DNA of 64,000 nt from Candidatus Lloydbacteria bacterium. GTDB lineage: Bacteria > Patescibacteriota > Minisyncoccia > Phycocordibacterales > UBA6899. Where the stretch lies: the NCBI GenBank assembly GCA_043719805.1, contig JAYSTI010000001.1, positions 215,770 through 279,769 on the forward strand. The letters are read 5' to 3'. This document shows, one piece after another, positions 9,342-42,037 of the stretch (positions within the stretch are counted from its first letter, which is position 1; each line of letters opens with the position of its first letter). Under the pieces are notes generated by a model. The model ran no database searches. It saw only the letters and a program-made list of their open reading frames with translations, and was not told the origin of the DNA. A program made the translations under genes and the position numbers.

Positions 9342-9410
9342 TTTGTGCTTTTCTGTTGCGTATTTATAACTCGACCGACCGCGCAAGGTGGCATTTATAC
9401 AGAGAATACC

Positions 9411-15109: not shown

Positions 15110-15110
15110 A

Positions 15111-21266: not shown

Positions 21267-23006
21267 TCAACCGACGAACGTCATCAGCCTTTTTGCGCGC
21301 GCATCCCAACTGTAATCCCGTACAATCTCGGACGCATTTTTTGCCCGCTTCAGTCCTTCTTCTTTATTGCGAAGCAACATCGCTATTTTTTCCGCCAAAT
21401 CGCTCCGGTCTCCCGGCAGAAACAGCACCGCATTTTTCTCACTCAAAATTTCGCGCATGGAGGGTAGGTCTGACGCAACGATAGTCCGCCCAGATGCCAT
21501 GTACTCGAATAATTTTATCGGCGAGGTGAATCGTATGGATTCCTCGCTCACCGGCTCGTTGGGCAGTAGAAGCATATCTGCAGCACGAAGGTACGTGGGA
21601 ATTTGCGATGCGGATACGTGGGCGCGAATGATACAGCGTGAGTCGGTGCGCACCTCCTTGCATTCGGGAAAACGGTCGAGCTCTTCGTGCGTTCCGCCAA
21701 CCATGACGAGATGTGCGTCCGGAAACTGACTTCGCACATCGGCCCACGCACCACAGAGCGTCGCGACACCCTTCCAGCGAGCGAAGGAGCCGACGTACAT
21801 GACGATGTCACCATCGACAGGAAGATCGACTTTTTTGCGCGCATCTTCGCGTGAGATCTCAATAGCAAATTTTTCAAGATCGGCGCCGTTGCGAATGACT
21901 TCCGTATGTGTAAAACCATTTTTTCGAAAGACCTCTGCAGTGCCGTCTGAATTTGCGACGACCCCTTTCACTCCGCGAAGAAAGAACTTGAATACCCCAC
22001 TCTTCGAGCTCGGCCACAGATGCGCTTCGTAATACACATCCGCACCCTTCAATGCGAGGAGCCATGCGACCTCGGCATTACGTGTGTAATACACAGACGA
22101 CGTGTCTACTCTTTCTGCGGCGAGGGTGAGTAGAAAAAATGCGGCATCGATCCAATATGCGATCGCTCCGATGATGCTCTTTAGCCTGAGGGCGGGGAGC
22201 ACCGGTAAATATCGAACGGGAAATTGCTCGGTCAGTCCATAATATGCGAACACATCTTCACTAATGGCGTTTGTTCGCTTCGCCACCCAAAGCTCGACAT
22301 GCCCCCCCGCTCTTGCGAGGGACTGAAGAGTGTTGGCTATTTGGAGCCCGTGCGCCTTCTCGGTCGGCATACGCAAGTGCATCACAAATCGCCACAAGCG
22401 AACATGTTCCAATGCGTGTCGTGTCTTCTCCTCGTTTTCGGGGGTCACCACCATCGTGGTCATGGGAAGTTCATTGCGCACCACATACAGCGCCTCAAAG
22501 TTCTTCTCTCGTGCACTCTCCCATGCGTCCCTCATTTCTTCATTCATGTCTTCGCGCGCTCCATATCCACGGGACTGGAGTCTTTCTGCGCGCACACCTT
22601 CATCGGTGACAAAAAGCAGAAGTACGTCCGGGCGAGGAAGCTCGGCAAGAAACGTGCGCACTGACTCTTCCGAGAGAGCCCCATCAAAGAGTGAAATGAC
22701 ATTTTGATGATGGCCTTGGTCTATGATTGCGCGCGGAAGTCGCGACGCCTTCATGTATTTTGCATTGTGGACCAAAAAAAGATTGACGAACTTTGTGTAC
22801 CAAAAAGGAGATGCACCGCGGAAGCGAATCACGGCGACAAGGCCGTTAAAAAAATACACGGGGTGGCGTATCGCAAAACAGAGATTGTTCCAGAGAATAT
22901 CAGCGGCTCCATTCGTGTGGACGACACGCCAACCCTCTTCGTCGGCAAGCTTCCTTGCAAAAGTGCTTTTTCCGCTTCCCGGCAATCCTACAAGCTCAAG
23001 AATCAT
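21267..23006 (-). CDS. Fusion of a P-loop kinase-like domain with a GT4 glycosyltransferase
   Basis: N-terminal Walker A ELVGLPGSGKSTFARKLA (AAA_33/zeta-toxin/KTI12-like small kinase fold). A complete GT4 follows (...VGSFARWKGVATLCGAWADV...LPNEPVSEESIRFTSPIKLFEYMASGRTIVASD). Confidence 0.7.
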   Translation of the reverse strand: MILELVGLPGSGKSTFARKLADEEGWRVVHTNGAADILWNNLCFAIRHPVYFFNGLVAVIRFRGASPFWYTKFVNLFLVHNAKYMKASRLPRAIIDQGHHQNVISLFDGALSEESVRTFLAELPRPDVLLLFVTDEGVRAERLQSRGYGAREDMNEEMRDAWESAREKNFEALYVVRNELPMTTMVVTPENEEKTRHALEHVRLWRFVMHLRMPTEKAHGLQIANTLQSLARAGGHVELWVAKRTNAISEDVFAYYGLTEQFPVRYLPVLPALRLKSIIGAIAYWIDAAFFLLTLAAERVDTSSVYYTRNAEVAWLLALKGADVYYEAHLWPSSKSGVFKFFLRGVKGVVANSDGTAEVFRKNGFTHTEVIRNGADLEKFAIEISREDARKKVDLPVDGDIVMYVGSFARWKGVATLCGAWADVRSQFPDAHLVMVGGTHEELDRFPECKEVRTDSRCIIRAHVSASQIPTYLRAADMLLLPNEPVSEESIRFTSPIKLFEYMASGRTIVASDLPSMREILSEKNAVLFLPGDRSDLAEKIAMLLRNKEEGLKRAKNASEIVRDYSWDARAKRLMTFVG

Positions 23007-24505: not shown

Positions 24506-25948
24506 ATGTTGTTTAATTCTCTCAATTTCCTGATATTCTTCCCGGTTGTGTCGACGCTTTTTTTTCTGCTTCCCCATCGTTTTCGATGGGCGCTGCTTCT
24601 CGTTGCGAGCTGTATCTTCTATATGGCGTTCATTCCAAAATATATTCTTATTTTGGCAGCCACAATTGTCGTAGACTACTTTGCGGGGATACAGATCGAG
24701 CGCTCCACCGGAAAAAGAAGGATGGTATTTCTCACAGTATCCATACTTTCCAATATAGGATTTCTCGCGTTTTTCAAATACGGGAACTTCATAGAAGTGA
24801 ACGTCAACGCACTCGCACAATTTCTTGACTGGAACTACTCTCTTGCGGCACTTAAAATAATATTGCCAGTCGGACTCTCGTTTCATACATTTCAGGCCTT
24901 AAGCTACATCATAGAGGTCTACCGGGGTACCCAAAAGGCTGAGCGCAATTTTGGTATCTTTGCGCTTTATGTCATGTTCTTCCCTCAGTTGGTTGCCGGT
25001 CCTATAGAGCGACCGCAAAACCTGCTTCCACAATTCCGCATCGAGCACCACTTCGACCTCGAGCGGGTCGGATCGGGCCTACGACTCATGCTTTGGGGTT
25101 TCTTCAAAAAAATGGTTGTTGCGGACACGCTCGCAGCCGGAGTAAATGTCGTATTTAATAATCCGACAGACTTCACCGGAACCGCATTCATTGTAGCGAC
25201 AATATTTTTTGCATTCCAAATTTATTGTGACTTCTCCGGATACTCGGACATTGCGATCGGCTCAGCACGAGTCCTCGGTTTCAAGCTCATGCAAAACTTC
25301 GACGACCCGTACCACTCACGCTCAATTTCAGAATTCTGGAAACGATGGCACATCTCACTCTCAACTTGGTTCAAGGATTATCTCTACATCCCGCTCGGAG
25401 GAAACAGGGTTCCCAAATGGCGTAATTACCTAAATCTTTTCATTGTGTTTACTGTGAGCGGACTATGGCATGGGGCAAACTGGACATTTATCGCATGGGG
25501 GGCACTTCATGGTGCGTACCTCATCCTTGCTATCGTTTTCAGAAAATGGCGCGAGCGACTCGCATCGCTCTTACACCTCGACCACTTTCGCATTCTTTCC
25601 GCGGCGCTCAGCATTGCCACGACATTCTCACTTGTCTCGATCGGCTGGATATTTTTCCGCGCAAATTCTATTCAGGATGCAATATATATTGTTTCGCACC
25701 TCTTCATGGGACTCTCCCTCGATAGCTACTCCCTCACCCTCACAAAGGGGCGCACGTGGCTCATCTACGCTCTCGCTGCAATCGCGGTTATGGAGACGGT
25801 CCAGATCCTCATCAAGAGCCCCCGTGCTGTAGCCTATTTTATGAATTGTCCCAAATATGTCCGAATAGCGATCTACGCTGTCTTGACCCTCACCATCCTC
25901 CTTTCGGGAAACACCAATGAGGCACAATTCATCTATTTTCAATTTTAA
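24506..25948 (+). CDS. MBOAT-family membrane O-acyltransferase (AlgI/DltB/PatA-like)
   Basis: 480 aa polytopic. MBOAT His box RWHISLSTWFKDYLYIPLGGNR. N-terminus MLFNSLNFLIFFP typical of AlgI/DltB. Confidence 0.85.
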   Translation: MLFNSLNFLIFFPVVSTLFFLLPHRFRWALLLVASCIFYMAFIPKYILILAATIVVDYFAGIQIERSTGKRRMVFLTVSILSNIGFLAFFKYGNFIEVNVNALAQFLDWNYSLAALKIILPVGLSFHTFQALSYIIEVYRGTQKAERNFGIFALYVMFFPQLVAGPIERPQNLLPQFRIEHHFDLERVGSGLRLMLWGFFKKMVVADTLAAGVNVVFNNPTDFTGTAFIVATIFFAFQIYCDFSGYSDIAIGSARVLGFKLMQNFDDPYHSRSISEFWKRWHISLSTWFKDYLYIPLGGNRVPKWRNYLNLFIVFTVSGLWHGANWTFIAWGALHGAYLILAIVFRKWRERLASLLHLDHFRILSAALSIATTFSLVSIGWIFFRANSIQDAIYIVSHLFMGLSLDSYSLTLTKGRTWLIYALAAIAVMETVQILIKSPRAVAYFMNCPKYVRIAIYAVLTLTILLSGNTNEAQFIYFQF

Positions 25949-26001: not shown

Positions 26002-27852
26002 CTACTTCGCTCCGGGGACCTCGTAAACAGTAAAATACTGATCGGCATATACCATGCTCCATGCGACGACCTCCTCCATTCTCTGAGCCTGCGCATTTGG
26101 AACAACGACAAATCGTACGTGATATGCACGAAGCGACTCCGCCGGTCGCACGAGAATCTTTTCTCGATATTCCTTTTCCATTTCGCGAAACCGCGAGTGA
26201 TCGGCATCATTGTATGTTGGTGGTGGACTAATGCAGCGCTCACCTGAAGTAAGCTTCTTGCACACAGAGAACCACAACTCGGCATTTCTTGTATAAAACA
26301 ACTTTCCCCCGCTCCAAAAATCATTTGCGGAACGTTCAATCAGGTCGATATCAACGGGTGACGGGAAGCGCGAAAGGAGCCATCGTTCTTCGATCTCCCT
26401 GTTTGATGCAAAATATCCAAGTCCGTATCGATTAAAAAGGATGGGATTCCCCGTCTCAATGGGGATATATCCACTCATTCGCTCCGATGCAAGTACGACA
26501 GATCGTTCACCCTGAGCACTCAACCAGTCAAATACTCCGGAGTAAGACTCCACCTCAAGCACGACCTCTCGGGACATGTTTAGCGGTTGAAGTGACCTGG
26601 GCAGCGAAAGGACAGCTTCTAATGCGAGCAAGAAAAAAAGTCCGAGCGCGACAATCCGGAGAAACAATCGCTTCCCGAAAAAATCACGACTAAGTGGTGT
26701 CCGACAAAAAAAGACAATGACGACTGAGAGGAACACCCAAAACATCGCAAACCGACCAACGTGCGTAGCGTTTTCAAAATCGACACCGGTGATGTTGCTC
26801 GAGACAAGCGCAAGGAGTATCCCCGTCCCACAAATGAGGAGGAAGTCAAAAACCGAGGCCATCCTATTGTCTGCACATGATTTTCGAAAAATTATGCACA
26901 TTGTGACACCGACAAGGATCCATCGTCCGTAGTAATATTCCTCAATTTGAGGCAGATGAGAAAACAGGGGCGCGTACCGCAGGAGTGTTTCATGATAAAA
27001 TTGATCTTTTGCTCCAAAAAATGCAAATATGGCAAATGGCACCACAAACAATGCGGCACACGCCGATGCCCAGAAATATTGCGGGAGATGCTCGCGACGG
27101 CGGACAAAGAGGTGTACAAAGATCACCGCCCACGTCGATGCAACAAGCACAAATAAATGCGGGTATACAAAGACTGTTCCCCCGACCAATGATCCAAGGA
27201 GTGAGGCGAGGCGAAAGTCTCTCTTTGCCAGCCATTCCGACAGGAGAAGGAGGAATAAGACATACACCGGCAAATAAATTTGCATTGACGTCTGGCGAAG
27301 TACGTACGAGTACGTACCGAGCAATATCAAACTCGCCCCTATCACCGAACCGCGAGAGGATATACCGAGAGATTTAAGAAGAAGAAAAAGTAACGACACA
27401 TACACAAGACACCAAAGAAAAAAATTTAATAGTACGGCAAAAAGAGGCGGGAAGCCCAGAAAAAAAGGCAATGCAGCCAACATGTCGGGGAATGGCGTGG
27501 ACGGAAACTGTTCCCCGATATGTTCAAGAAAATAGGGATTGCTCCCAAAGATATATCCCTCTGAGACTACCATTGCCCGAGAAATATAGAACTGTGCGTC
27601 GCCGACCAATTCGGGAAGGATCCCCCGCCACGAGTCACCCGCAAGTACCCGTACTTCAACATAGGGCACAATTGCTGCAAACAGGACAACAGCAACGAGG
27701 GCGCCGAAGGCCCGCAGTGGGAATAGTTTGGATGGAAAAAGTTTTCCCCCTTCGCAAGAACGCCCGATCTCCTCAGTGAACCAATTTCCGAGGCGGTGAA
27801 AATTGCCGGACATCATTGTGGCATTGTATATATCATGCACGGACCATGTCAA
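26002..27852 (-). CDS. Large polytopic membrane protein with a C-terminal soluble domain, possibly a GT-C-type transferase or a partner of the acylation module
   Basis: 616 aa. More than 10 hydrophobic segments in the first 400 aa, then a hydrophilic C-terminal domain. No signature motif recognised. Confidence 0.45.
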   Translation of the reverse strand: MTWSVHDIYNATMMSGNFHRLGNWFTEEIGRSCEGGKLFPSKLFPLRAFGALVAVVLFAAIVPYVEVRVLAGDSWRGILPELVGDAQFYISRAMVVSEGYIFGSNPYFLEHIGEQFPSTPFPDMLAALPFFLGFPPLFAVLLNFFLWCLVYVSLLFLLLKSLGISSRGSVIGASLILLGTYSYVLRQTSMQIYLPVYVLFLLLLSEWLAKRDFRLASLLGSLVGGTVFVYPHLFVLVASTWAVIFVHLFVRRREHLPQYFWASACAALFVVPFAIFAFFGAKDQFYHETLLRYAPLFSHLPQIEEYYYGRWILVGVTMCIIFRKSCADNRMASVFDFLLICGTGILLALVSSNITGVDFENATHVGRFAMFWVFLSVVIVFFCRTPLSRDFFGKRLFLRIVALGLFFLLALEAVLSLPRSLQPLNMSREVVLEVESYSGVFDWLSAQGERSVVLASERMSGYIPIETGNPILFNRYGLGYFASNREIEERWLLSRFPSPVDIDLIERSANDFWSGGKLFYTRNAELWFSVCKKLTSGERCISPPPTYNDADHSRFREMEKEYREKILVRPAESLRAYHVRFVVVPNAQAQRMEEVVAWSMVYADQYFTVYEVPGAK

Positions 27853-27881: not shown

Positions 27882-28943
27882 CTACTGTGCACTTAATATA
27901 GACGAGATCTGGTCTGCAACGAGTTTCGCACCATACGCAGTGACGTGTCCGTCGCCCTCAATAAAAATTTCGCTCATATTAGGGTGAGTTGCAATGATGG
28001 GTTCCATGGTGGCACAAGTGAGGCCAAATTTAGCACAGGTGTCTTCGAAAAGTTTTAAGTTTGCACGATAGAGCTCGGTGTTCCCCACTTCTTTGTAAAA
28101 AGGTATTTCGTATATTAGCAAACGCGCACTTGGATGTTCTGCCTTCAATTTCTCAAAAATCCTGAACACACTCTCCATTTTTGTTACATCAAAAACCTGC
28201 GGCTGTTTTGCGCTGACCTTCAAATTGAACCCGATGGCCTTGCGCACGAGGGGGCGCAAAAGTGTGTAGGTCGCAGTATTTCGTACTTGCGCAACAAGCC
28301 CGGAAGGCTTTGAGCTCGGTGTCGCCGGAAGAAGCGGCATATTCGCGGGTACGTCAAACGAATCTTTAAAATATGGCTTCGCGAAACCCTGATATTCGTC
28401 TGATTCAATCCCTGGCAAATCATTGATAGGAAACAATACTGCAACGATGTCAGTCACATTATATACGGGCAGTGCGGCTCTCGCGCGTAGGAGATACTGG
28501 TCAGGCGCATAACCGCTTACGCCAAGATTCAACACCTGCTTGCCATTTAATTTTTTCTCAATTAAATAAGGAAAAGATTCTTCATAGGGCAGGTAGTAAC
28601 TCTCAACAAAACTGCTCCCCAGCATCGCGACGGATTGTTGCGTCGTGGAGGCATGCTCATGCCAACGAGCGGCAGTCGTCGGAAACCCTTCCGGATTGTA
28701 ATAATTGAACTGTCCGTAATAAAGAGACGAGCGATAAAACTTATAATCACTGCGCGTCTTCCACCCGAGCAAATCATCGAATTGGTACGTAGCCATTCGG
28801 TCGGTCGTTGGATCAATACCAACAACGATGCGGAGAAAATACTCCGTACAAAAAAAGACGGTCCCAAGTCCGAGTACCCCGATGACGCCACGTGAAATGA
28901 ATCGCTTGATGGACATGAAATGTAGGATAAATATACACGCCAT
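27882..28943 (-). CDS. SGNH/ALGX-DltD-like acyltransferase/esterase partner of the MBOAT
   Basis: N-terminal anchor MSIKRFISRGVIGVLGLGTVFF. AMLGSSFVESYY ... GVSGYAPDQY resembles DltD/AlgJ/AlgX SGNH-like modules. Start at 28943 or 28916 (ORF track: 29009). Confidence 0.55.
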   Translation of the reverse strand: MACIFILHFMSIKRFISRGVIGVLGLGTVFFCTEYFLRIVVGIDPTTDRMATYQFDDLLGWKTRSDYKFYRSSLYYGQFNYYNPEGFPTTAARWHEHASTTQQSVAMLGSSFVESYYLPYEESFPYLIEKKLNGKQVLNLGVSGYAPDQYLLRARAALPVYNVTDIVAVLFPINDLPGIESDEYQGFAKPYFKDSFDVPANMPLLPATPSSKPSGLVAQVRNTATYTLLRPLVRKAIGFNLKVSAKQPQVFDVTKMESVFRIFEKLKAEHPSARLLIYEIPFYKEVGNTELYRANLKLFEDTCAKFGLTCATMEPIIATHPNMSEIFIEGDGHVTAYGAKLVADQISSILSAQ

Positions 28944-28997
28944 GCATAGGTCAAGCAACACTTGTGGGTCGCGGTGCTCATCGGTATAGTTATGTGC

Positions 28998-30167
28998 ATG
29001 AATCTCCATGAGTACGAAGGTAAGGAGCTCCTCAGGCGGGGTGGCATTGAGATTCCGCGTGGGAAACTTTTTGACGGGTCAGATGCCCCCCCAGAATTAG
29101 CATATCCCGTCTTCGTGAAGGCTCAGATACTTGCGGGCAGGCGAATGAGCTCAGGTGGAATCATGATTGCACGAGACTATGAGGAATTGGCTCTTGCAAC
29201 AACCAAGCTGCTCGGAAGTACGCTGGCGGACAGGATAGTCAAGGATGTGCTCGTTGAAGAGGCGGTTGCCTTTACCGGTCAGGAACATTTTGTCTCTTTT
29301 TCATGTGACACAAAGACTAGGACGTTCGTGTGCACAACCTCCGATGAGGGCGGTACGGGAATAGAGGAGCGGCCGGTGCAGAGGTTTGTCATTGATTACG
29401 AAAATCCTCAATTCGACAACAGCGCAGTTCCGCGCGCGGTTCTCGAAAAACTCTTTGATATATTTTGTGTGAATGATTGCATTCTCCTTGAGGTCAACCC
29501 ACTCGTTCACTGCCTTGATACCGACACCTGGGTAGCGCTTGATGCAAAGATCGTCATCGACGATTTCGCGTTGCCACGACACCCGGAATTCACTTTCTCT
29601 GAGCGCACGAACACTCCAGGAAACATCAGAACATCACGGGAAATAGCCGCTCAAAAAATTGACCATGGAGATCATCGCGGTAGTGCGGGCTCATCGTATG
29701 TCGACCTCGACGGGAACATCGGGATGCTCCCCTCCGGTGGAGGGGCATCACTCATTGCGATGGATGCACTCTTTCAAAATGGCGGGAGGCCGGCAAACTA
29801 TACTGAATATTCGGGAAACCCCACAAAAGAGAAAGTGGAAAAACTTGTTTCCATCGTTATATCAAAACCCGGACTTCACGCGCTGTGGGTGGTTGGAGCT
29901 GTCGCAAATTTCACCGACATTTATGAAACTCTGAGTGGCCTCGTCCTTGGACTACGTGCCGCACGAAATAATTTATCACTTCCCATTGACTACCCCATCA
30001 TCATCCGCCGAGGGGGGCCACGTGATGAGGAGGCATACGCGATGCTTCGTGAGGTAACGGATTTCGACCTACATCTTTTTGGAGAAGAAACAAGCATCGA
30101 ACAGTCGGCGAAGGAAGTGATGAAATTAGCCCAAGCGTATGCAAATAAACAAACTCATACCAAATAA
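28998..30167 (+). CDS. Succinyl-CoA synthetase beta (SucC)-like ATP-grasp subunit. Candidate citryl-CoA synthetase / ATP-citrate lyase-like.
   Basis: Starts MNLHEYEGKELLRRGGIEIPRG (compare SucC MNLHEYQAKQLF). ATP-grasp plus ligase-CoA domain layout. Confidence 0.75.
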   Translation: MNLHEYEGKELLRRGGIEIPRGKLFDGSDAPPELAYPVFVKAQILAGRRMSSGGIMIARDYEELALATTKLLGSTLADRIVKDVLVEEAVAFTGQEHFVSFSCDTKTRTFVCTTSDEGGTGIEERPVQRFVIDYENPQFDNSAVPRAVLEKLFDIFCVNDCILLEVNPLVHCLDTDTWVALDAKIVIDDFALPRHPEFTFSERTNTPGNIRTSREIAAQKIDHGDHRGSAGSSYVDLDGNIGMLPSGGGASLIAMDALFQNGGRPANYTEYSGNPTKEKVEKLVSIVISKPGLHALWVVGAVANFTDIYETLSGLVLGLRAARNNLSLPIDYPIIIRRGGPRDEEAYAMLREVTDFDLHLFGEETSIEQSAKEVMKLAQAYANKQTHTK

Positions 30168-31056
30168 TCCGCGTGTACTTATTCAAGGAATAACAGGCAA
30201 GGAGGGCATGCGTGCGATGCGTGCGATGCGTGCTTACGGAACAAACGTCATCGGTGGGGTCACCCCGAGGAAGGGCGGGCAAATCGTGGAGGGCGTCCCT
30301 GTTTGGAACACAATTAGCGAAGCGATACGCGAAGGCGGGCCAATTAACATGGTTGTCCAATTCGTTCCACAGCAAGGCGTTCTCAACGCAACAAAAGAAG
30401 CACTAGATTTCGATATCCCCTTCATTCTCGTTGGAGCAGAAAAAGTTCCAATACACGACACTATTCACATACATCGCCTTGCGAACAAAAAGGGAGCAAT
30501 TCTCATTGGGCCAGGCTCGGTCGGGATGATCGTCCCCCACTTGAGGCTCAAGATCGGAATGATTGGCGGCGATACCCCTGAACGAGTATTTGCACCAGGT
30601 CGAATTGCCATACTGTCAAAGTCCGGTGGCATGACTTCAGAAATAGCCCTTGCGCTCAAGCAAAGTGGACTCGGAGTGTCTCTGGCGTGCGGAGTCGGAG
30701 GAGAAAGAATCACCGGAAGCGATTTTGCCGACCTGTTAATCGCACTTGAAAATGACGAAAGTACCGCCGCGACCATCATCTTCGGTGAGGTTGGTGGATT
30801 CGCCGAAGAGCGAGTTGCCGAAAAGGCTTCTCGTGGGTTGTTCAAGAAACCTATTATTGCGCTCACTGTCGGCGAGTTCATCGCGAATCTTTCGCACGAA
30901 GCCCCCTTTGGGCACACCGGCGCGATAATGGAAAATGGTCACGGCGGAGTCCTGGAAAAACGGGATGCCCTTAGGAGGGCGGGCGTGCACGTCGTGGAGC
31001 GTCTTGATGAAATTGCGCCGCTTCTTGTGCGCCTATCAAATAATGAGTTATCCTAA
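30139..31056 (+). CDS. Succinyl-CoA synthetase alpha (SucD)-like CoA-binding subunit
   Basis: VLIQGITGKEG...AYGTNVIGGVTPRKGG...PVWNTISEA and GMIGGD...ILSKSGGMTSEI match SucD/CcsA/AclA N-terminal halves. Confidence 0.75.
   Translation: MQINKLIPNNPRVLIQGITGKEGMRAMRAMRAYGTNVIGGVTPRKGGQIVEGVPVWNTISEAIREGGPINMVVQFVPQQGVLNATKEALDFDIPFILVGAEKVPIHDTIHIHRLANKKGAILIGPGSVGMIVPHLRLKIGMIGGDTPERVFAPGRIAILSKSGGMTSEIALALKQSGLGVSLACGVGGERITGSDFADLLIALENDESTAATIIFGEVGGFAEERVAEKASRGLFKKPIIALTVGEFIANLSHEAPFGHTGAIMENGHGGVLEKRDALRRAGVHVVERLDEIAPLLVRLSNNELS
30208..30234 (+). repeat. Perfect 9-bp tandem repeat (atgcgtgcg x3, the last copy ending gct) inside the SucD-like gene, encoding MRAMRAMRA
   Basis: Directly visible as ggcatgcgtgcgatgcgtgcgatgcgtgcttac. 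Confidence 0.8.
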
Positions 31057-31060
31057 TTAT

Positions 31061-31726
31061 ATGACAACCGTAACTCACAAAAATGACGAACCCTGGTTCG
31101 GCGACACCCCCCTCATCAGCGCTGCACAGGACAAAACTTTTATTGCAATGATATTTGAGATGTTCTCCGGAAAAATGCCGACGAAATACGAAGGTGAGCT
31201 TTTCGAGCTTTTACTCAAGCTCTCAATCGATCATGGGACCAATACGCCCTCCGCAAAAACAACGATAATGCGAGCGGGAGAAAAAAGAGCAATGGGTGAT
31301 GCGGTCGGCGCAGGAATTGCAGAGATCAATAATGCCCACGGAGGTGCAACGGGGCCTGCGATGAGCATGTTTTATGAAACGAAAGAATCAGGAAATTGTG
31401 GGCGTAATGTTGTTGCGAATTTTGAGATACACAAAGAACGCGTACCGGGTTTTGGTCATCGTATATACAAAAAAGACCCACGTGCCGAACTTATTCTGGA
31501 AACCATCGTACGCCTGGGCTTCCCCGATACGTACATCGACCTTGCCCGCGAACTAGAAAAGGAGCTGGCGGAAAGTTTGCCTCATAAGATTCTTCCGCTC
31601 AATATCGACGGGGCGATTGCCGTCGCGCTATGCACGCTCAGATGGAGGCCGGAGTGGAGTACTGCAGTCTTTATCTCATCCCGCAGTGCGGGGCTCTGTG
31701 CTCACTATCTCAATACTGCGCGATGA
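31061..31726 (+). CDS. Citrate-synthase-like small protein (citryl-CoA lyase / ACL C-terminal-domain-like)
   Basis: VPGFGHRIYKKDPRAELI is the citrate synthase/citryl-CoA lyase signature (GFGHRVYK..DPR). About 220 aa. Start overlaps the end of the SucD-like gene (ATG at 31043 or 31061). Confidence 0.6.
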   Translation: MTTVTHKNDEPWFGDTPLISAAQDKTFIAMIFEMFSGKMPTKYEGELFELLLKLSIDHGTNTPSAKTTIMRAGEKRAMGDAVGAGIAEINNAHGGATGPAMSMFYETKESGNCGRNVVANFEIHKERVPGFGHRIYKKDPRAELILETIVRLGFPDTYIDLARELEKELAESLPHKILPLNIDGAIAVALCTLRWRPEWSTAVFISSRSAGLCAHYLNTAR

Positions 31727-32753
31727 TGCGCGGAATGAGTGAGGAGATATCGTGAGAGGAGCTAACAATATCCTGCAATTTTGCACCAAGTGCTTGTCGC
31801 CCTGCCTGATCTTTGTCTACAAAAGAGCGAATATGGGAGACAAAATCGTTGGTTTCACCCCCTGAAAACATGCAAATATCACGAAGCGGTAGAAGTGTGC
31901 TTTCCAGTCCGGGATTTGAGGTAAGCACAGGAACTCCCGCCGCCATTGCTTCGAGTACGGCCTTATCAAGACTTCCCGTTCCGGACATATTCACAAAAAG
32001 ATCTGCCTGCGCGAGATATGGTAATATCGCGTGATGAGAGACAGGACCGACCCACACCACATCCGTATCGAAACCCCTCCTGGCCACATCCGCGCGAAGT
32101 GCATTCATGTATATCTTGTCCTCGTCAGTGAGCGGACCACCAACAATGTGGGTGCGGATGGCGACTCCCTCTTGTTTCAGTATTTCTAACGCATCAAAAA
32201 GAATGTCATACCCCTTCGTTCGCGAGACGCGTCCGATTGAGATGATGCGAAATACCGGATCGGGAACAAGCCCAACCTTCCGATAGTCCGCGACGTTGAT
32301 GCCGTGTCCCATCACGTGGCGTTTTATTGTAGGAATGCGAAAACTTTCAATCGATGCGGTAAAAATTATATCTGCGAAAATCACCGCCGTGCGAAGCGAT
32401 ATATCTACCTGCTTGTGCGTATACCAAAGTGCGACTTTTTTCCCTATGAGTTTCCAGAATATTCCACCAAGGAGAACATAGACCTGATTCATATGCACGA
32501 ACACTGCATCATAATTTTTACGTTCGTTCCAAATGATGCGGAAAAAATTCCAAAGATATTTTATGCGGGAAACTCCCCCCTCCTTTCCAAGTGAATACAC
32601 GCGAACATTTTTGGGGAGATCATGCTCCCCCACAAAAAGCCCCACAGCGATGACCTCGTCACAATGTTTGGCGAACTCGGCTATCCACCCATGAAAAAAC
32701 CCGAGTACATCGTCGTTCCGGTCGATTTTTTGTGTGAAGATGAGAAGTTTCAT
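31710..32753 (-). CDS. GT4-family glycosyltransferase
   Basis: RVSRTKGYDILFDALEIL...GSLDKAVLEAMAAGVPVLTSN. Start MKLLIFTQKID at 32753 overlaps the upstream gtrA stop in an ATGA arrangement. Confidence 0.75.
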   Translation of the reverse strand: MKLLIFTQKIDRNDDVLGFFHGWIAEFAKHCDEVIAVGLFVGEHDLPKNVRVYSLGKEGGVSRIKYLWNFFRIIWNERKNYDAVFVHMNQVYVLLGGIFWKLIGKKVALWYTHKQVDISLRTAVIFADIIFTASIESFRIPTIKRHVMGHGINVADYRKVGLVPDPVFRIISIGRVSRTKGYDILFDALEILKQEGVAIRTHIVGGPLTDEDKIYMNALRADVARRGFDTDVVWVGPVSHHAILPYLAQADLFVNMSGTGSLDKAVLEAMAAGVPVLTSNPGLESTLLPLRDICMFSGGETNDFVSHIRSFVDKDQAGRQALGAKLQDIVSSSHDISSLIPRIIAQY

Positions 32754-33186: not shown

Positions 33187-34119
33187 TTATGCGCGCTTTT
33201 TCATAAACGATATGATTTTTTTTGCGATAAGTTCCGGTGCCATACCGACAGAGCGCAGGAGGTAATCGCGGTCACCCACGAGAGTCACGAAAATATCCGG
33301 AAACCCAAATGCGTGAAATTTTATTGGCGCCAATCCACCTTGCCACAAAATACCGGAAACAATAGACCCCAAACCACCGATGGTGCTGTGCTCTTCAACG
33401 GTAAACACTCCTTTTGCCGTTTTTGCTTTTTCAAGAATAAGATTTTTGTCGATTGGCTTTAGGTTTGGCATGCTAATGACGCAAGTCGACATGCCCGTCT
33501 TCTTTTCAATCTTCACTGTGGCCTCCATTGCGATATCAAGCACATTCCCGGTCGCAATTATAATGATATCCTTCCCTTCTTTTATGACATATCCTCGACC
33601 CGACGCAAAGCGAAATGACGGCTGAGTGTAATCCACGCCCGGACTTTTGCCTAATCGAATATATGCCGGACCCTTGGTGCGGAGCATCGTTTTCGTTGCC
33701 TCACGTGCCTCCCATGAGTGCCCCGGGGAATAAATTGCCATGTTCGGAAGTGCGTTCATAATTGCATAGTCCTCAACGGTATGGTGCGTTACGCCGTGTG
33801 CGGGGTAATTGAACCCGCCTCCCGTACCAACGATCTTTACATCAAGGTTGTCGTAGCAAACGCCGGTGCGTATCTGTTCGTAAGGGCGCATGGTTGCGAA
33901 TGATGCAATAGAATAGGCGATTACTTTTTTCCCCTCAAGCGCAAGTCCTGCCGCCATGCCCACCATGTGCGACTCGGCGATGCCAACATTTATGAACCTA
34001 TCGGGAAACTTTTCCTGAATCGGCTCAAGGGCATTAAAGCCGAGGTCACCCGTCAAGAACATAATGTCCTTATTTTTTTCCATTTCGATAAGCACTTGTT
34101 TGACAAAATCTCGTCTCAT
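33187..34119 (-). CDS. Transketolase C-terminal subunit (pyrimidine-binding plus C-terminal domain)
   Basis: GIAESHMVGMAAGLALEGKKVIAYSIASFATMRPYEQIR ... IVGTGGGFNYPAHGVTHH. Confidence 0.85.
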   Translation of the reverse strand: MRRDFVKQVLIEMEKNKDIMFLTGDLGFNALEPIQEKFPDRFINVGIAESHMVGMAAGLALEGKKVIAYSIASFATMRPYEQIRTGVCYDNLDVKIVGTGGGFNYPAHGVTHHTVEDYAIMNALPNMAIYSPGHSWEAREATKTMLRTKGPAYIRLGKSPGVDYTQPSFRFASGRGYVIKEGKDIIIIATGNVLDIAMEATVKIEKKTGMSTCVISMPNLKPIDKNLILEKAKTAKGVFTVEEHSTIGGLGSIVSGILWQGGLAPIKFHAFGFPDIFVTLVGDRDYLLRSVGMAPELIAKKIISFMKKRA

Positions 34120-34946
34120 GACTTTTTCATTTTATCCCGTGACACGGCAACGTCCTTTGCGTTGGGAACATAATAATGCGCATGGAGCGTGTGTTCGATG
34201 TGAGGAATGCTTTTCCCGGCAATCGTATCGGCAATGACCACCACGGGGACTCTCGATTGTTTCGCCGCACGAAGCACCTTCACGAGCGCCACTGAATCGT
34301 GCCCGTCCGCACGGAGCACCTTCCATCCGAATGCCTCCCACTGCGCACCAAGGTCCTGCTTGTTTGTTAATTTTGTGGCGCCAAATCCCTGGAATTTATT
34401 GTCGTCGATGATTGCGACAATATTTCCAAGCTGGTGATTCCCGGCGAACATGACTGCCTCCCATACCGACCCCTCGTTGCATTCGCCATCACCGATAAGG
34501 ACATACGCCTTGCTCTTTGTTCCTCGGAGCGCGTATGCTATGCCAATCGCGATGGAAAGCCCATGCCCAAGAGAACCGGTCGATGCCTCTACTCCCGCGC
34601 CCGCGCTGCGCGATGGGTGGGTATGAAAATGCCCCCCGTTCACCCGATGACCAAGGAGTTTTTTTAGCGGAAAATATCCACGTAGTGCGAGTGTGGCATA
34701 GTATGCCGCGGCGGCATGACCCTTCGAGAGCACGAAGCGGTCGCGCGAAGAATCATTCGGGCGCTTCGGGTCAATGTTGAGTATGTCAAAATAGAGTACT
34801 GCGAGTATGTCACTCACCGAAAGCGACGAACCCGTCTCACCAGAGCGGCTGCGTTCAGACATCTCTATGACGAGGTGGCGAATGTGGCCCCCGATTGCCC
34901 CAAGCTGCCTCGGATTCATCATCTTATTTTTTATACTTGTCGGCAT
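34116..34946 (-). CDS. Transketolase N-terminal subunit (TPP-binding)
   Basis: LSKGHAAAAYYATLALRGYF ... GSLGHGLSIAIGIAYA ... LIGDGECNEGSVWEA. ATGA overlap with the C-terminal subunit gene. Confidence 0.85.
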   Translation of the reverse strand: MPTSIKNKMMNPRQLGAIGGHIRHLVIEMSERSRSGETGSSLSVSDILAVLYFDILNIDPKRPNDSSRDRFVLSKGHAAAAYYATLALRGYFPLKKLLGHRVNGGHFHTHPSRSAGAGVEASTGSLGHGLSIAIGIAYALRGTKSKAYVLIGDGECNEGSVWEAVMFAGNHQLGNIVAIIDDNKFQGFGATKLTNKQDLGAQWEAFGWKVLRADGHDSVALVKVLRAAKQSRVPVVVIADTIAGKSIPHIEHTLHAHYYVPNAKDVAVSRDKMKKS

Positions 34947-38471: not shown

Positions 38472-40208
38472 CTATAAATTTTTTATCATATACGTTCCCT
38501 CGAGGACATATCCCAGCTTGCGGTAATACTCACGGACGCCGACACCGGAGATAACAGCTATTTTTTTGTATCCCCTTTCCTTGGCGATACGTTCTGCTTC
38601 CGCGAGAAGCCTTCGCCCGAAACCGACGTGCTGGCTTTGACTGCCGTCGCCGCCCACGCGCGTATGCCTCCCGTACGTGTGCAACTCGCGGATGAGTGCC
38701 GTGCCGCGAAGCACCGGCAGCACTGCGTCATCGCCATGATTATCCGGTAGACGAAGCCGCGTGAACGATACGAGCTTTCGCGCTGCTAAATCCTCGAAAC
38801 TCAAAAATTGTTCTTCGCCCGTTTTGGTTCGGTATGTGATGTTCGATAACGTAAAATCATCCGGATTAACCTCCCCCTCGCGTATCTCTCGACAGCGAAT
38901 GCATTTGCACTGCCAGCCATTTTTTTTCATGTCTTCGTCCATAGCCTGACGAAGATTCGAGACGTGACTTCCCGCCATGATGTACGTGGCCGGAATGTCA
39001 CGTATAACGCGTAAAATGCGCACATACGGAGGAACTTGCTGCTTTGCGCCCCGAAGCACGTCTATGAGCTCTGAGTCGGTATATGGCGTAAATCCGCCCG
39101 TTTTCCACGTCTCATACAGCTCGCTATTATCAAGGACCATGCATGGGTAGATCTTGAGCATATCCGGCTGAAAATCCTCACCGGAAAATAGTTCGCCGAA
39201 CATAGAAATGTCCCGAGCGATGGTACTCCCGGGAAGATTCGGCATCATGTGGTACACAATCTTGAATCCGGCGTTACGAAGCAACTCTGACGCACTTTTT
39301 ACGCGTGCGATTTTCATGTCGCGCTTTGTGAGCTTGAGTACGTCATCATCAAGATGCTGCACTCCAATCTCCACCTTCGTCACGCCAAACACGCGGAGTC
39401 GCTCAATTTCAAAATCAGTAATGTAGTCGGGGCGCGTCTCGATGGAGAGACCGATAATGCGCGATACTGCGCGTTCGTTCTCGTCCTGGAGCTTGAGGAG
39501 ATACGCAAGCCGGCCGCGCCCGTCCTGCTTTGCGGGATCGGGGTCTTCATATACTTCGGTGCGCGAGTCATTTCCCGTCCCGTAATCATTGCACGCACGA
39601 TAGCATCCGATCAAAAACTCCTCCTGATAAACTGGATGATAAAAACTCCACGTGCCTCCGATCACGATCATTTCGATCTTGTCGATGGGATGTCCGTTCT
39701 GCTCGAGCGCCTTCAGTCGGCTGGTGATCTGCATGTACGGGTCAAAGTCATTCGCGAGTGCACGTGCCGCAGCGGGCTCCTTGGCCAGATAGCTTTTGGG
39801 CATCGACACGTCGGTCGGACAATACGTGCACCGACCGGGGCACGCGAACGGCTTCGTGAGGAGCGACACGACGGCAACACCGGAATTCGATTTCGTCTTT
39901 ATTTTCCGCATCGCCATTTCCGCATCGATGCTGACTTCTTCGACGCCCTCTTTGACGAGCGCGCGATAAAGCGCAAGCACCTCGGATTTTGTCGGCATTT
40001 GAATGCTTCCATCCTGTTCATTTTTGACATTTCGGGATTCTCCCGTCTTCGTATAACTGTCGCCACTCTGTCGCATTTCACGAAGGCGCGCCGAAAGTAC
40101 CGCGTCTTTGACGATGCGTTTCTTGAGCTTTTCGACATCCAGATCAGTTTTGATATTTGCGAATAGCATGAATTCCATTACACTAGCAAAAAAATATACA
40201 AAACGCAC
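38472..40208 (-). CDS. ELP3-family radical-SAM/GNAT protein (Elongator Elp3 / tRNA U34 acetyltransferase-like)
   Basis: Radical-SAM CxxxCxxC cluster in FACPGRCTYCP. C-terminal GNAT (GFGRRLLAEAERIAKERGYKKIAV). 578 aa. Probable start at the internal Met MPTKSEV. Confidence 0.75.
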   Translation of the reverse strand: MRFVYFFASVMEFMLFANIKTDLDVEKLKKRIVKDAVLSARLREMRQSGDSYTKTGESRNVKNEQDGSIQMPTKSEVLALYRALVKEGVEEVSIDAEMAMRKIKTKSNSGVAVVSLLTKPFACPGRCTYCPTDVSMPKSYLAKEPAAARALANDFDPYMQITSRLKALEQNGHPIDKIEMIVIGGTWSFYHPVYQEEFLIGCYRACNDYGTGNDSRTEVYEDPDPAKQDGRGRLAYLLKLQDENERAVSRIIGLSIETRPDYITDFEIERLRVFGVTKVEIGVQHLDDDVLKLTKRDMKIARVKSASELLRNAGFKIVYHMMPNLPGSTIARDISMFGELFSGEDFQPDMLKIYPCMVLDNSELYETWKTGGFTPYTDSELIDVLRGAKQQVPPYVRILRVIRDIPATYIMAGSHVSNLRQAMDEDMKKNGWQCKCIRCREIREGEVNPDDFTLSNITYRTKTGEEQFLSFEDLAARKLVSFTRLRLPDNHGDDAVLPVLRGTALIRELHTYGRHTRVGGDGSQSQHVGFGRRLLAEAERIAKERGYKKIAVISGVGVREYYRKLGYVLEGTYMIKNL

Positions 40209-40213
40209 CAGTT

Positions 40214-41212
40214 TCAGTAGCGTGGGCCCATTGAGTTAATTTTTTGCATCAACTTTCTCGCATTCCCGTGTTTCATCATACCCAGATACGACTGCACGGT
40301 TTCCTGTCTACCTGCTTTCATTTTGATATTTTTGATCATCCTCCGCTTCGTCGCCGTACGCAGCACTCGATGGTCCGGGAAATGTACCCAACCGAGAAAA
40401 TCGACACCCGAGGCAAGCGTGCTAATACTCACCTTGTTGGGATGGAGCGCGAGGTGCAATCGAGACGAAAGAAATTTCTCTATGTTGGGTAATGGCTCAA
40501 TAAGTTCGTATCTGTCATTGCTCATAAATACGAAGTCGTCGGCGTAGCGTATGTAGTATTTCTGTCCAAGCTCGTGCTTCACAAATTGGTCAAATGCATT
40601 CATGTAAATATTCACGAGGAGCTGCGAGGTGAGATTGCCGAGTGGTAATCCCTTTCCATGCCCCGTGCTCTCAAAACTTTTTATGACACACTCGAGTAGC
40701 CACATCGTATCGTGATCGGGAACGCGTTGCACTAGGACAGTGAGCATTACTGCATGGTCGATAGACGCGAAGAATTTACGAATATCGCACTTCAGTATCC
40801 AGCATGTGCGTGTGTTGTTTTGGCTCACCTTCTGAGCAAAGGACTGAAAGCGCATGGTTGCCTTAAGTGTGCCCTTATTAACACGGCAAGAGTACGAATC
40901 GGCGATGAAAGTACGGTCAAAGAATGGATAGAGCATGCGGTGAATAGCGTGATGCAGGAGTCTATCGCGCACGGTGGCTTTGTGGATGTTGCGCGGTTTG
41001 GGGTCGTTTATAGAAAATGCTACATACGCACCATGTTGGTACTTCTTTGTGCACAAATCATCATGAAGCACGGAAATGTTGTGCGCAAGATGCAGCGCAA
41101 ACTCCATGACATCTTTTTTGTGCTTCTTGCCACGCACAAACTCACCCCATGCCTCATAAAGATTTTGGAGAGAAACGATGTCATCAAAGCAAGGTGGTGT
41201 ATTGTTCTTCAT
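40214..41212 (-). CDS. DGR reverse transcriptase
   Basis: RT motifs: RNIHKATVRDRLLHHAI (1), SYSCRVNKG (2), ILKCDIRKFFASIDH (A), GLPLGNLTSQLLVNIYMNAFD (B), YIRYADDFVF (C, YADD). About 330 aa. Adjacent Avd-like gene and TR. Start at MKNNTPP (41212) rather than 41257, which would overlap avd. Confidence 0.75.
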   Translation of the reverse strand: MKNNTPPCFDDIVSLQNLYEAWGEFVRGKKHKKDVMEFALHLAHNISVLHDDLCTKKYQHGAYVAFSINDPKPRNIHKATVRDRLLHHAIHRMLYPFFDRTFIADSYSCRVNKGTLKATMRFQSFAQKVSQNNTRTCWILKCDIRKFFASIDHAVMLTVLVQRVPDHDTMWLLECVIKSFESTGHGKGLPLGNLTSQLLVNIYMNAFDQFVKHELGQKYYIRYADDFVFMSNDRYELIEPLPNIEKFLSSRLHLALHPNKVSISTLASGVDFLGWVHFPDHRVLRTATKRRMIKNIKMKAGRQETVQSYLGMMKHGNARKLMQKINSMGPRY

Positions 41213-41229
41213 AATTATAGAATGGCCGC

Positions 41230-41598
41230 ATGACACACACACCGAGAGAGCTCCCATCCGTCATACTTAAACAAAAAGATGCATATGTGCTTTGGCTCAA
41301 ACTGCACAGGGATTTCCCAAAGGTTGAGCGGCTCGGCATTGGACAGAAAATAGAGCAATCATTTCTTGCGGTACTCGAATATACGTTTACCTCAGCTTAT
41401 CTTCCACCCAACCAAAAGATTGTCCTTCTTGGAAAAACTATTTCTCGGCTCGATGTACTCAAATTTTTTCTGCAGCTCGCATGGGAAAGTAAGCTCATCC
41501 CGACGGAAAAATATGCCGATCTTTCGGAGCGACTTGAAGAAATCGGTCGCATGCTCGGCGGATGGCGAAAAGGATTGCTCAACAAAACTCCCACCTGA
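41230..41598 (+). CDS. avd: Four-helix-bundle Avd-like (DGR accessory variability determinant / 23S-IVS protein family)
   Basis: 122 aa. Helical protein resembling Avd/IVS four-helix-bundle proteins (YVLWLKLHRDFPKVERLGIGQKIEQSFLAVLEYTFTSAY ... LDVLKFFLQLAWESKLI). Lies between the RT and the TR. Unusually, divergent from the RT. Confidence 0.6.
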   Translation: MTHTPRELPSVILKQKDAYVLWLKLHRDFPKVERLGIGQKIEQSFLAVLEYTFTSAYLPPNQKIVLLGKTISRLDVLKFFLQLAWESKLIPTEKYADLSERLEEIGRMLGGWRKGLLNKTPT

Positions 41599-41618
41599 CA
41601 TCGGTGGGAGAAATAGTT

Positions 41619-41745
41619 AGTTTCGGAAGCACCACGCGATTGCGGTTCTCGGCATTCCACACGTTGTCGTTCGCGAAGGGGTTCACGTTCACCCTCAATC
41701 TCTCATCGGAGTTCCGGTTCACGTTGGCGACGAAATTTTCTGTGC
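41619..41745 (-). repeat. DGR template repeat (TR)
   Basis: 127 bp, 111 of 127 identical to 42063-42189. On the minus (sense) strand it reads ...ENFVANVNRNSDERLRVNVNPFANDNVWNAENRNRVVLPKL, rich in AAC (Asn) codons. All 16 differences from the VR fall at TR adenines. Confidence 0.85.
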
Positions 41746-42037
41746 GATACACCATCTGTGCCACCACCCATTGAGTACTCTTTGGGCTGTATCGTATCTG
41801 AGACTTCAAAGTCCTCCAGTGTATCGCACCAACTGACTATATTTTTGTTTCTTGAAAATAGATCCACCCTTTTGCGAGACGTATCCGGCAAAATACCCAA
41901 ATATATTTTCACACAATCATCGTGCCCGAGCCATGACCGGAGCACTGCGGATATATTGCCCTATAATGATACACGAGTATACAAAAAACCCTCAGACCTT
42001 GCCAATGCAAGTGTCCAAGGGTCGAAGAGTCAAAGGG

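Follow-up and report, generated by a model that had tools for sequence, protein, structure and literature searches.

A compact gene trio in a Candidatus Lloydbacteria glycan island probably encodes an unfused citryl-CoA synthetase and citryl-CoA lyase and may supply acetyl-CoA

Within a 64-kb window, the whole 64,000-nucleotide stretch of a Candidatus Lloydbacteria contig that was analysed here, three consecutive plus-strand genes at positions 28998-31726 (g1, g2 and g3, together the trio) resemble enzymes that cleave citrate at the expense of ATP. Our preferred reading, to which we give a probability of roughly 0.6, is that they encode a compact, unfused citryl-coenzyme A (CoA) synthetase (CCS) and citryl-CoA lyase (CCL) that supply acetyl-CoA for envelope or glycan synthesis. 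The parts of this reading differ in strength: judged from their sequences, the proteins very probably belong to the unfused type of ATP-dependent citrate-cleaving system, made up of CCS (CcsA/CcsB) and CCL, and the odds that the trio serves acetyl-CoA supply are about even. The trio itself is real: the SucC-like, SucD-like and citrate-synthase-like genes described in the original prediction are present as tightly packed open reading frames (ORFs), as follows.

28998-30167, plus strand: g1, 389 aa, CcsA/AclB-like large subunit with an ATP-grasp domain and a citrate-binding domain of the ATP-citrate lyase (ACL) type
30139-31056, plus strand: g2, 305 aa, CcsB/SucD-like small subunit that combines a CoA-binding Rossmann domain with a phospho-histidine domain
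31061-31726, plus strand: g3, 221 aa, citryl-CoA-lyase-like protein with a minimal citrate-synthase fold

The domain content of g1 sets it apart from ordinary succinyl-CoA synthetases. Pfam searches identified ATP-grasp_2 (PF08442, 80.6 bits) and Citrate_bind (PF16114, 83.5 bits) in this protein and did not find the SucC-type Ligase_CoA domain (PF00549). Its best match among solved structures was CcsA, the large subunit of the citryl-CoA synthetase of Hydrogenobacter thermophilus (6hxq_B, E = 1.5e-41), and by family profile score it is closer to characterised CcsA (284 bits) than to AclB (242 bits) or SucC (212-150 bits), with ACLY at 148-124 bits. The C-terminal domain alone scored 86 bits with CcsA, 83 with AclB and no more than 46 with SucC. 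Four motifs (GGGAS, EYSGNP, ANFT and RRGGP) align, with identical residues, with G281-283, S308-G309, N346-T348 and R379 of human ACLY, positions presumed, from ACLY crystal structures, to be citrate ligands. The motifs are near-invariant across 80 homologues and are of the ACL type: they include ANFT and RRGGP, where CcsA has ANNT and RRNGP. The best NCBIfam model for g1 was SucC, which scored 168 bits, below its cut-off of 370.

The small subunit g2 contains the Pfam domains CoA_binding, Succ_CoA_lig and Ligase_CoA, and scored 204 bits with Aeropyrum pernix SucD and 191 bits with CcsB (6hxq_A) among solved structures. Two segments of g2 align without gaps to CcsB, where SucD requires gaps. 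Its phospho-histidine loop reads FGHTGAI, the family consensus GHAGAI being invariant, and both the GHTGAI loop and the CoA-binding motif QGITGKEG are conserved in the family. The best NCBIfam model was SucD (234 bits versus a cut-off of 336, and thus again below it).

Family profiles place g3 with citryl-CoA lyases: Ccl scored 248 bits over residues 7-226, compared with 126 bits for the best citrate synthase and 111 bits for the lyase module of AclA. As a single sequence, g3 matched Ccl of H. thermophilus (6hxp_A) with E = 3.7e-23. The Pfam Citrate_synt model (106.7 bits) was covered at positions 136-346 of 357, that is, over its C-terminal two thirds only. All of the top four NCBIfam matches were citryl-CoA lyase models, the best of which (NF004869) gave 113 bits against a cut-off of 212, a score below the threshold. 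The protein carries the motifs IDHG, HGGA, GFGHRIYKKDPR, NIDG and SRSAG, in which D57/H58, H93, H133, R141, D183 and R208 are invariant among 30 sequences and align with the corresponding motifs of Ccl and citrate synthase. Presumably H58, H93, H133, R141, D183 and R208 correspond to H238, H274, H320, R329, D375 and R401 of pig-heart citrate synthase.

The original prediction had named the split architecture of ACL, or of CcsBA plus Ccl, for these genes, and the second of these is well supported by the leading solved-structure matches (6hxq_B, 6hxq_A and 6hxp_A) and by the CcsA score of 284 bits for g1, compared with at most 212 for SucC. The catalytic histidine of the SucD-like subunit and the citryl-CoA-lyase active-site residues, which that prediction had singled out for inspection, are present and conserved, and among 74-80 homologues taken from independent loci the active-site positions of all three proteins show little or no variation. 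Our placement of the trio relative to succinyl-CoA synthetase, ACL and citrate synthase was judged from profile scores, indels and motifs. It agrees with the phylogeny in a 2022 preprint, in which sequences from the candidate phyla radiation (CPR) and DPANN archaea that were annotated as succinyl-CoA synthetase or citrate synthase are monophyletic with CCS and CCL. Because all three proteins stay below the cut-offs of their best NCBIfam models, the lineage is divergent, and g3 would stand outside the curated citryl-CoA lyase subfamilies.

Comparison with characterised systems shows the trio to combine features of two of them. Like CCS/CCL of H. thermophilus, it consists of three separate polypeptides of equal domain content, to which g1 and g3 give their best matches (284 and 248 bits). 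In addition, g2 has two indel states in common with CcsB, and there is conservation of the phospho-histidine loop and of the catalytic residues of the lyase. It differs in the shorter length of its proteins (389, 305 and 221 aa versus 429, 353 and 268 aa in the solved chains), in the absence from g3 of the last ~40 residues of Ccl, in the ACL-like citrate motifs of g1, in its arrangement as one tight operon-like unit, in a host lineage for which no reductive tricarboxylic acid (rTCA) cycle is reported, and in its glycan-acetylation neighbours. With ACL (AclB/AclA; PDB 6hxj and 6hxi) and with ACLY, it shares a g1-g2-g3 order that is colinear with AclB-AclA and with the ACLY domains, citrate-binding motifs of the same type as those of AclB and ACLY, and presumably the same overall chemistry; the role proposed here, acetyl-CoA from imported citrate, also resembles that of cytosolic ACLY. 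Unlike ACL, the SucD-like and lyase modules are separate ORFs in the window, as in all informative loci, and the ACL chains score lower than those of CCS/CCL (242 versus 284 bits for g1, about 104-115 versus 191 for g2, and 111 versus 248 for g3). SucCD belongs to the same superfamily and shares the catalytic scheme of ATP-grasp domain, phospho-histidine and CoA-binding subunit, and g2 is about equally similar to archaeal SucD and to CcsB. However, g1 has Citrate_bind rather than Ligase_CoA, the SucC and SucD equivalog models fail (168 versus 370 and 234 versus 336 bits), and g1 and g2 are always linked to a lyase gene. Lastly, citrate synthase and 2-methylcitrate synthase (PF00285) have the same fold as g3, the same catalytic His/His/Asp and the same substrate-binding Arg, whereas g3 is without the N-terminal ~135 model positions and the C-terminal tail, and its scores with these enzymes are about half of those with Ccl.

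Homologues of g1 number more than 3000 at E ≤ 1e-3. Those with names belong to Patescibacteria/CPR (Daviesbacteria, Woykebacteria, Taylorbacteria, Azambacteria, Giovannonibacteria and Microgenomates), and a scan of species-representative genomes adds Curtissbacteria, Woesebacteria and DPANN archaea (Woesearchaeota, for example), with a closed chromosome of 1.2 Mb among them. By tblastn, the order g1-g2-g3 on one strand was found in 77 of 82 non-redundant species-level loci (numbered with the prefix L below) from CPR and DPANN; in the remaining five the contig stops right after g2. Separate ORFs encode g2 and g3 in each of the 77 complete loci, with gaps of up to 2.6 kb. The trio is thus inherited as a unit throughout CPR and DPANN. 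Some of its members have already been named 'citryl-CoA lyase' or 'ATP citrate lyase citrate-binding domain-containing protein' by NCBI.

Several further features of these loci were observed. Many Daviesbacteria-type loci (L012, L024, L028, L030, L032-L034, L044, L046, L062, L064 and others) have one to three small ORFs of 80-260 aa inserted within the trio, so that g1 and g2 can lie as much as 2.5 kb apart and g2 and g3 as much as 2.6 kb; some of the inserted ORFs are toxin-antitoxin- or helix-turn-helix-like, as judged from sequence alone. A rough neighbour-joining tree of g1 (L002-L084), which covers the family only and is unrooted by outgroups, places the DPANN-labelled sequences (Woesearchaeota and others) among or beside Curtissbacteria-type sequences and Daviesbacteria-labelled genomes in both major clades, which hints at transfer of the trio between domains and within CPR. 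Many contigs whose trio is of the CPR type and has CPR-like neighbours bear titles of 'uncultured Gammaproteobacteria' or 'Pseudomonadales' metagenome-assembled genomes ('binchicken' co-assemblies; L002, L008, L009, L013-L016 and others), and L035 is labelled Nanoarchaeia yet carries bacterial mraZ/mraW. The Gammaproteobacteria, Pseudomonadales and Nanoarchaeia labels are likely placeholder or mis-binned taxonomy.

In the mechanism that we propose, g1 and g2 would form a SucCD-like heteromer in which ATP bound by the ATP-grasp domain of g1 phosphorylates the histidine of the GHTGA loop of g2. The phosphoryl group would then activate citrate in the ACL-type site of the C-terminal domain of g1, CoA bound to g2 would attack the activated citrate to give citryl-CoA, and g3 would split this intermediate into acetyl-CoA and oxaloacetate. 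Scavenged citrate would be the source and acetyl-CoA and oxaloacetate the products. Candidate sinks for the acetyl-CoA would be N-acetylation of glucosamine-1-phosphate by archaeal-type GlmU, sugar N-acetyltransferases of the left-handed beta-helix (LbH) type, O-acetylation by membrane-bound O-acyltransferase (MBOAT) and SGNH proteins, GNAT acetyltransferases, and Elp3. CPR bacteria are reported to have neither a tricarboxylic acid (TCA) cycle nor autotrophic pathways. Since the host is of the Patescibacteria type and its group is reported to be without a TCA cycle, the trio is unlikely to be part of an rTCA cycle; given these absences, and given neighbours that use acetyl-CoA in amino-sugar and glycan synthesis, acetyl-CoA supply would be the most economical role.

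To characterise the neighbourhoods, the ORFs of the 82 loci were called by a simple longest-ORF heuristic and the four genes on each side of the trio were clustered; all counts are raw and ignore kinship among loci. The commonest neighbour is archaeal-type GlmU or its LbH acetyltransferase half, which occurs in 38-39 of the 82 loci, shares the strand of the trio in 38 of 39 cases, and stands immediately upstream (position -1) in 17 loci, at -2 in eight, at -3 in seven, and sometimes downstream. This GlmU is a bifunctional sugar-1-phosphate nucleotidylyltransferase/acetyltransferase (TIGR03992 'Arch_glmU', about 250 bits versus a cut-off of 292), and its association with the trio persists across differing flanks (NRAMP/GIY-YIG, MraZ/MraW and RuvC). 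Two forms of it are seen upstream of g1 (L013 and L024-L078): the full bifunctional protein of ~430 aa, and a stand-alone LbH acetyltransferase of ~220 aa abutting g1 (for example L043, L050 and L059, after MraZ/MraW). This pattern suggests that the acetyltransferase half is the part kept linked to the trio.

Other neighbours also have ties to acetyl-CoA or to glycans. L-threonine dehydrogenase and glycine C-acetyltransferase (Tdh/Kbl), an acetyl-CoA-linked pair, lie near the trio in about six loci and GNAT acetyltransferases in six. In L004 and L082 the genes around the trio resemble WbpB/D/E and comprise a GFO oxidoreductase, an LbH acetyltransferase and DegT; in L004, DegT stands on one side and the oxidoreductase and acetyltransferase on the other. 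Glycan genes are frequent beside the trio in the clade to which the window belongs; besides the set in L004, NeuB, AsnB, a Mur ligase and a glycerophosphotransferase occur at other loci, and in all five closest relatives (58-63% identity) the trio lies within glycan islands. Two of these relatives, L087 and L088, keep the window's arrangement of a minus-strand SGNH-like gene, the trio, a minus-strand glycosyltransferase family 4 (GT4) gene and, further on, Elp3. In L086, MBOAT genes with 45-51% identity to the MBOAT of the window flank the trio on both sides, together with an ALGX-like gene; sets of FkbH, acyl carrier protein (ACP) and MaoC occur in L082 and L086. Across the 82 loci (flanks of up to 21 kb) and the 64-kb window, the trio has no further TCA gene near it, and 2-oxoglutarate synthase, fumarate reductase, aconitase and isocitrate dehydrogenase were not seen. 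An NRAMP gene found in ~15 loci was considered as a citrate transporter and rejected: it encodes a metal transporter and probably reflects synteny. Recurrent downstream genes of 415-490 aa appear, from their N-termini, to encode soluble, unrelated proteins.

These neighbourhoods bear on the proposal in the original prediction that the trio provides acetyl-CoA or another acyl-CoA for glycan O-acylation. Supply of acetyl-CoA for glycan acylation is plausible and gains circumstantial support from the presence of GlmU or LbH genes in 38 of 82 loci and of SGNH-like and MBOAT genes in the subclade of the window. The MBOAT/SGNH pairing is restricted to close relatives; across the family, N-acetylation by GlmU and LbH proteins is the better-supported partner.

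A number of observations weigh against our reading, and they concern both the enzymes and their role. As noted, all curated NCBIfam models (SucC, SucD and Ccl) stay below cut-off for the trio. The single-sequence score of g2 is slightly higher for archaeal SucD (204 bits) than for CcsB (191 bits). Both g3 and its family end ~10 residues past a conserved AH motif, without the C-terminal tail of ~40 residues seen in Ccl; because these residues are absent, g3 probably also lacks a counterpart of the arginine that the second subunit contributes in citrate synthase. Substrate and direction are inferred from homology, and formation of a complex is likewise inferred. As to role, no acetyltransferase is co-transcribed with the trio in the window, two minus-strand genes stand between MBOAT and the trio, and shared ancestry can explain the synteny of the MBOAT/SGNH pairing among close relatives. 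The 64-kb window contains no GlmU-like gene, so that the GlmU link comes from other genomes only. That link is concentrated in one large clade (Daviesbacteria, Woykebacteria and Curtissbacteria), is seldom met in the clade of the window (3 of ~25 loci) and may in part be inherited synteny. Lastly, no citrate transporter was seen next to the trio.

Two other readings would change the identity of the enzymes. Were the trio an ordinary SucCD beside a truncated citrate-synthase pseudogene, SucC and SucD would be expected as the top NCBIfam matches of g1 and g2, as they are, and g3 would cover part of the citrate-synthase Pfam model, as it does. However, the SucC model reaches 168 bits against its cut-off of 370, and g1 has Citrate_bind in place of Ligase_CoA; proteins of the g3 type with 220-230 aa number more than 360 and have invariant catalytic residues; the match of g3 to full-length Ccl runs from one end to the other (residues 7-226); and the trio is kept in 77 of 82 loci. 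We therefore rejected this explanation, which the original prediction had itself named as the case that would overturn it, on domain content, cut-offs, family size and residue conservation, and of all the rivals it is the only one that is firmly excluded: the conserved linked loci and the large g3-type family mean that g3 is not a pseudogene and that the trio is a functional unit. The second reading takes a related acid (2-methylcitrate, malate or citramalate) as the substrate, giving a different acyl-CoA or an activated glycan substituent. The below-cut-off scores with all curated models, the missing C-terminal segment of the lyase, and the unusual glycan-tailoring genes in the window and its relatives, including the FkbH/ACP/MaoC sets, would all be in keeping with it. 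Against it stand the four ACL-type citrate-site motifs of g1, which hardly vary and agree with human ACLY at each residue, the invariant oxaloacetate/citrate-binding His and Arg residues of g3, and a g3 profile score for Ccl that is about twice that for methylcitrate or citrate synthases. We consider a related acid quite improbable; by the same near-invariance of the citrate-site motifs, an acid-CoA ligase making some other activated substituent, which the original prediction had offered as an alternative, is unlikely.

The remaining rivals accept a citrate-cleaving enzyme and differ over what it is for. In the reverse direction, g3 would condense acetyl-CoA, derived for instance from threonine through Tdh/Kbl or from pyruvate, with oxaloacetate, and g1 and g2 would turn citryl-CoA into citrate with substrate-level phosphorylation of ADP to ATP. 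The overall ACL reaction is close to equilibrium, the ACL of Desulfobacter postgatei reportedly runs towards citrate with a gain of ATP, and Tdh/Kbl, as possible producers of acetyl-CoA, lie beside the trio in the ~6 loci mentioned. Without a TCA cycle, however, the citrate would be discarded and one C4 acid lost for each ATP, whereas acetate formation yields equal ATP without this cost, and the dominant neighbour, GlmU/LbH, consumes acetyl-CoA and so fits supply better than disposal; we regard this direction as unlikely. A catabolic role carries similarly low odds. Here the trio would be the entry to citrate fermentation, with acetyl-CoA converted to acetate and ATP and oxaloacetate passing to pyruvate and onward. 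The identity of the enzymes would be the same as in our preferred explanation, and CPR bacteria have been described as fermentative, with an acetyl-CoA synthetase that makes acetate and ATP; however, the genes that recur by the trio are those of envelope and glycan acetylation rather than of fermentation or transport, and the first step would be ATP-neutral. As the citrate-cleavage step of rTCA carbon dioxide fixation, perhaps shared between symbiont and host, the trio would do what characterised CCS/CCL do in the rTCA cycle of Aquificae. The 2022 preprint speculates on an rTCA cycle divided between DPANN symbionts and their hosts, and metagenome surveys class ccsA, ccsB and ccl genes under carbon fixation. 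The reported absence of TCA enzymes and autotrophic pathways from CPR genomes and the lack of any other linked TCA gene in the 82 loci or the window make this very improbable.

The CCS/CCL enzyme kind is known and has been structurally characterised in Aquificae, and CPR/DPANN homologues have been noted in the 2022 preprint and in database annotation; none of the literature that we searched puts forward a role for CCS/CCL in CPR. Three aspects of the trio appear to be undescribed in that literature: a three-gene operon that is shared across the family and colinear with ACL, the compactness of its proteins together with their citrate motifs of the ACL type, and a systematic linkage to GlmU-type and other acetyltransferases that implies acetyl-CoA supply outside an rTCA cycle. 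The source of acetyl-CoA for peptidoglycan and glycan precursors in CPR/DPANN-type organisms is rarely addressed. A citrate-to-acetyl-CoA module beside sugar acetyltransferases would be a concrete answer that names citrate as a metabolite symbionts may draw from their hosts. If the proposed role is true, metagenome surveys that bin these genes as 'rTCA carbon fixation' (KEGG ccsA/ccsB/ccl) would be making a systematic error of inference for CPR and DPANN.

A wider proposal can be put forward tentatively, with the odds somewhat against it: that the trio is a minimal, non-carbon-fixing ACL present across CPR and DPANN, which converts citrate scavenged from host or environment to an acetyl-CoA pool, is wired in the genome to the few reactions that still consume acetyl-CoA in such reduced organisms (UDP-GlcNAc synthesis by archaeal-type GlmU, sugar N- and O-acetylation, and Elp3), and represents the unfused stage between CCS/CCL and ACL. 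If so, it would be a prokaryotic counterpart of the cytosolic role of ACLY in eukaryotes, citrate would be a metabolic currency passed from host to symbiont, and the AclB-like/SucD-like/Ccl-like gene order with ACL-type motifs would be a living unfused stage on the way from CCS/CCL to ACL.

The gene boundaries used above were set as follows. In the ORF listing g1 begins MNLHEYEGKELL, a start fixed by alignment of MNLHEYE at residue 1 with CcsA and SucC. The g1/g2 junction is a 29-nt overlap, with the g2 start at ATG 30139; the resulting 305-aa ORF agrees with the N-termini of SucD and CcsB. Public gene calls put the start of g2 at an internal Met at 30208 (282 aa), which would cut away the conserved glycine motif QGITGKEG that binds CoA. 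Four nucleotides separate the g2 stop from the g3 start, which is most likely ATG 31061, giving a 221-aa product identical to NCBI product P0121; this ORF includes GFGHRIYKKDPR and ends at 31726.

The genes on both sides of the trio are on the minus strand, an SGNH-like gene divergent upstream and a GT4 gene convergent downstream, so that the trio would form its own transcription unit. The features around it that matter for its context are the following.

24506-25948, plus strand: MBOAT, a candidate consumer of acetyl-CoA (Pfam MBOAT, 99 bits)
26002-27852, minus strand: 616-aa membrane protein between the MBOAT and SGNH-like genes that seems to contain many hydrophobic segments and has no match in Pfam or NCBIfam
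27882-28917, minus strand: SGNH/GDSL-like protein (weak assignment), divergent from the trio
28918-28997, no strand assigned: 80-bp divergent spacer between the SGNH-like gene and g1, read from the sequence and presumed to be a bidirectional promoter region
31710-32753, minus strand: GT4 glycosyltransferase (Pfam Glycos_transf_1), convergent with g3 with a 17-nt tail-to-tail overlap
38472-40208, minus strand: Elp3, a radical SAM and GNAT protein for acetyl-CoA-dependent modification of tRNA wobble uridine (TIGR01211, 530 bits versus a cut-off of 350)

The trio had been described as lying directly after the MBOAT, membrane-protein and SGNH genes. That description does not hold as an operon: the SGNH-like and 616-aa membrane protein genes are on the minus strand, divergent from the trio, and share no operon with it. 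A promoter scan found no sigma-70 consensus match in 28918-28997, which is a presumed promoter by its position, and a promoter and terminator scan of 28700-32000 gave nothing beyond the expectation from shuffled sequence. The 'SGNH' label of the upstream gene stands only as a weak assignment, since Lipase_GDSL_2 scores 24 bits, below the cut-off of 32.9, and a three-sequence profile matches an SGNH esterase at E = 0.14 only; GSS, GVSG and DGH blocks are present. Its start was set at the Met of MSIKRFISRG from homology with L087 and L088, where orthologues with 65-66% identity occupy the same divergent position. Orthologues of the GT4 gene (53-55% identity) are likewise in the same position in L087 and L088. 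The MBOAT protein scored 158 bits with the DltB model, compared with a cut-off of 375, and is thus not DltB proper. Elp3 lies ~7 kb from the trio, and its orthologues (~72% identity) are found downstream of the trio in L087 and L088.

The whole window is one glycan-biosynthesis island that also carries a bona fide Elp3. Its genes include several glycosyltransferases (GT4 and GT2) and many methyltransferases, together with DegT, an FdtA fusion, a flippase, AsnB, MBOAT, GtrA, a split transketolase, epimerases and UDP-sugar dehydrogenases. Scans of the window for tRNA genes and Rfam families gave no matches. One of its GT4 glycosyltransferases, at 21267-23006 on the minus strand, carries an N-terminal AAA_33 domain (a kinase-like P-loop domain). 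A split transketolase-like pair at 33187-34946 (minus strand), with an N-terminal thiamine pyrophosphate half of 276 aa and a C-terminal half of 310 aa, sits between a GtrA-like gene and an NAD-dependent epimerase, which suggests a function in sugar tailoring rather than in the pentose-phosphate pathway. At 7027-9386 (minus strand), a DegT-family aminotransferase stands beside an S-adenosylmethionine-dependent methyltransferase fused to a C-terminal FdtA/WxcM-like sugar ketoisomerase domain, and this combination points to a 3-amino-3,6-dideoxy sugar that is possibly N-methylated rather than N-acetylated.

Two elements of other kinds lie in the window. An AbiEii-type nucleotidyltransferase toxin of a type IV toxin-antitoxin system (88 bits) and an adjacent ORF of 208 aa occupy 14402-15737 (minus strand) within the glycan island, and GC content falls to 0.41 across this segment. 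A diversity-generating retroelement extends over 40214-42703 (minus strand), with a reverse transcriptase gene at 40214-41257 (RVT_1, 88.7 bits), a 127-nt template repeat at 41619-41745 and a variable repeat at 42063-42189 that is 87% identical to it and lies inside the 3' end of a 221-aa ORF (42038-42703) with no family match. All 12 mismatches in the repeat core replace a template A with G, T or C in the variable copy, so that the pair carries the adenine-specific signature of diversity-generating retroelements.

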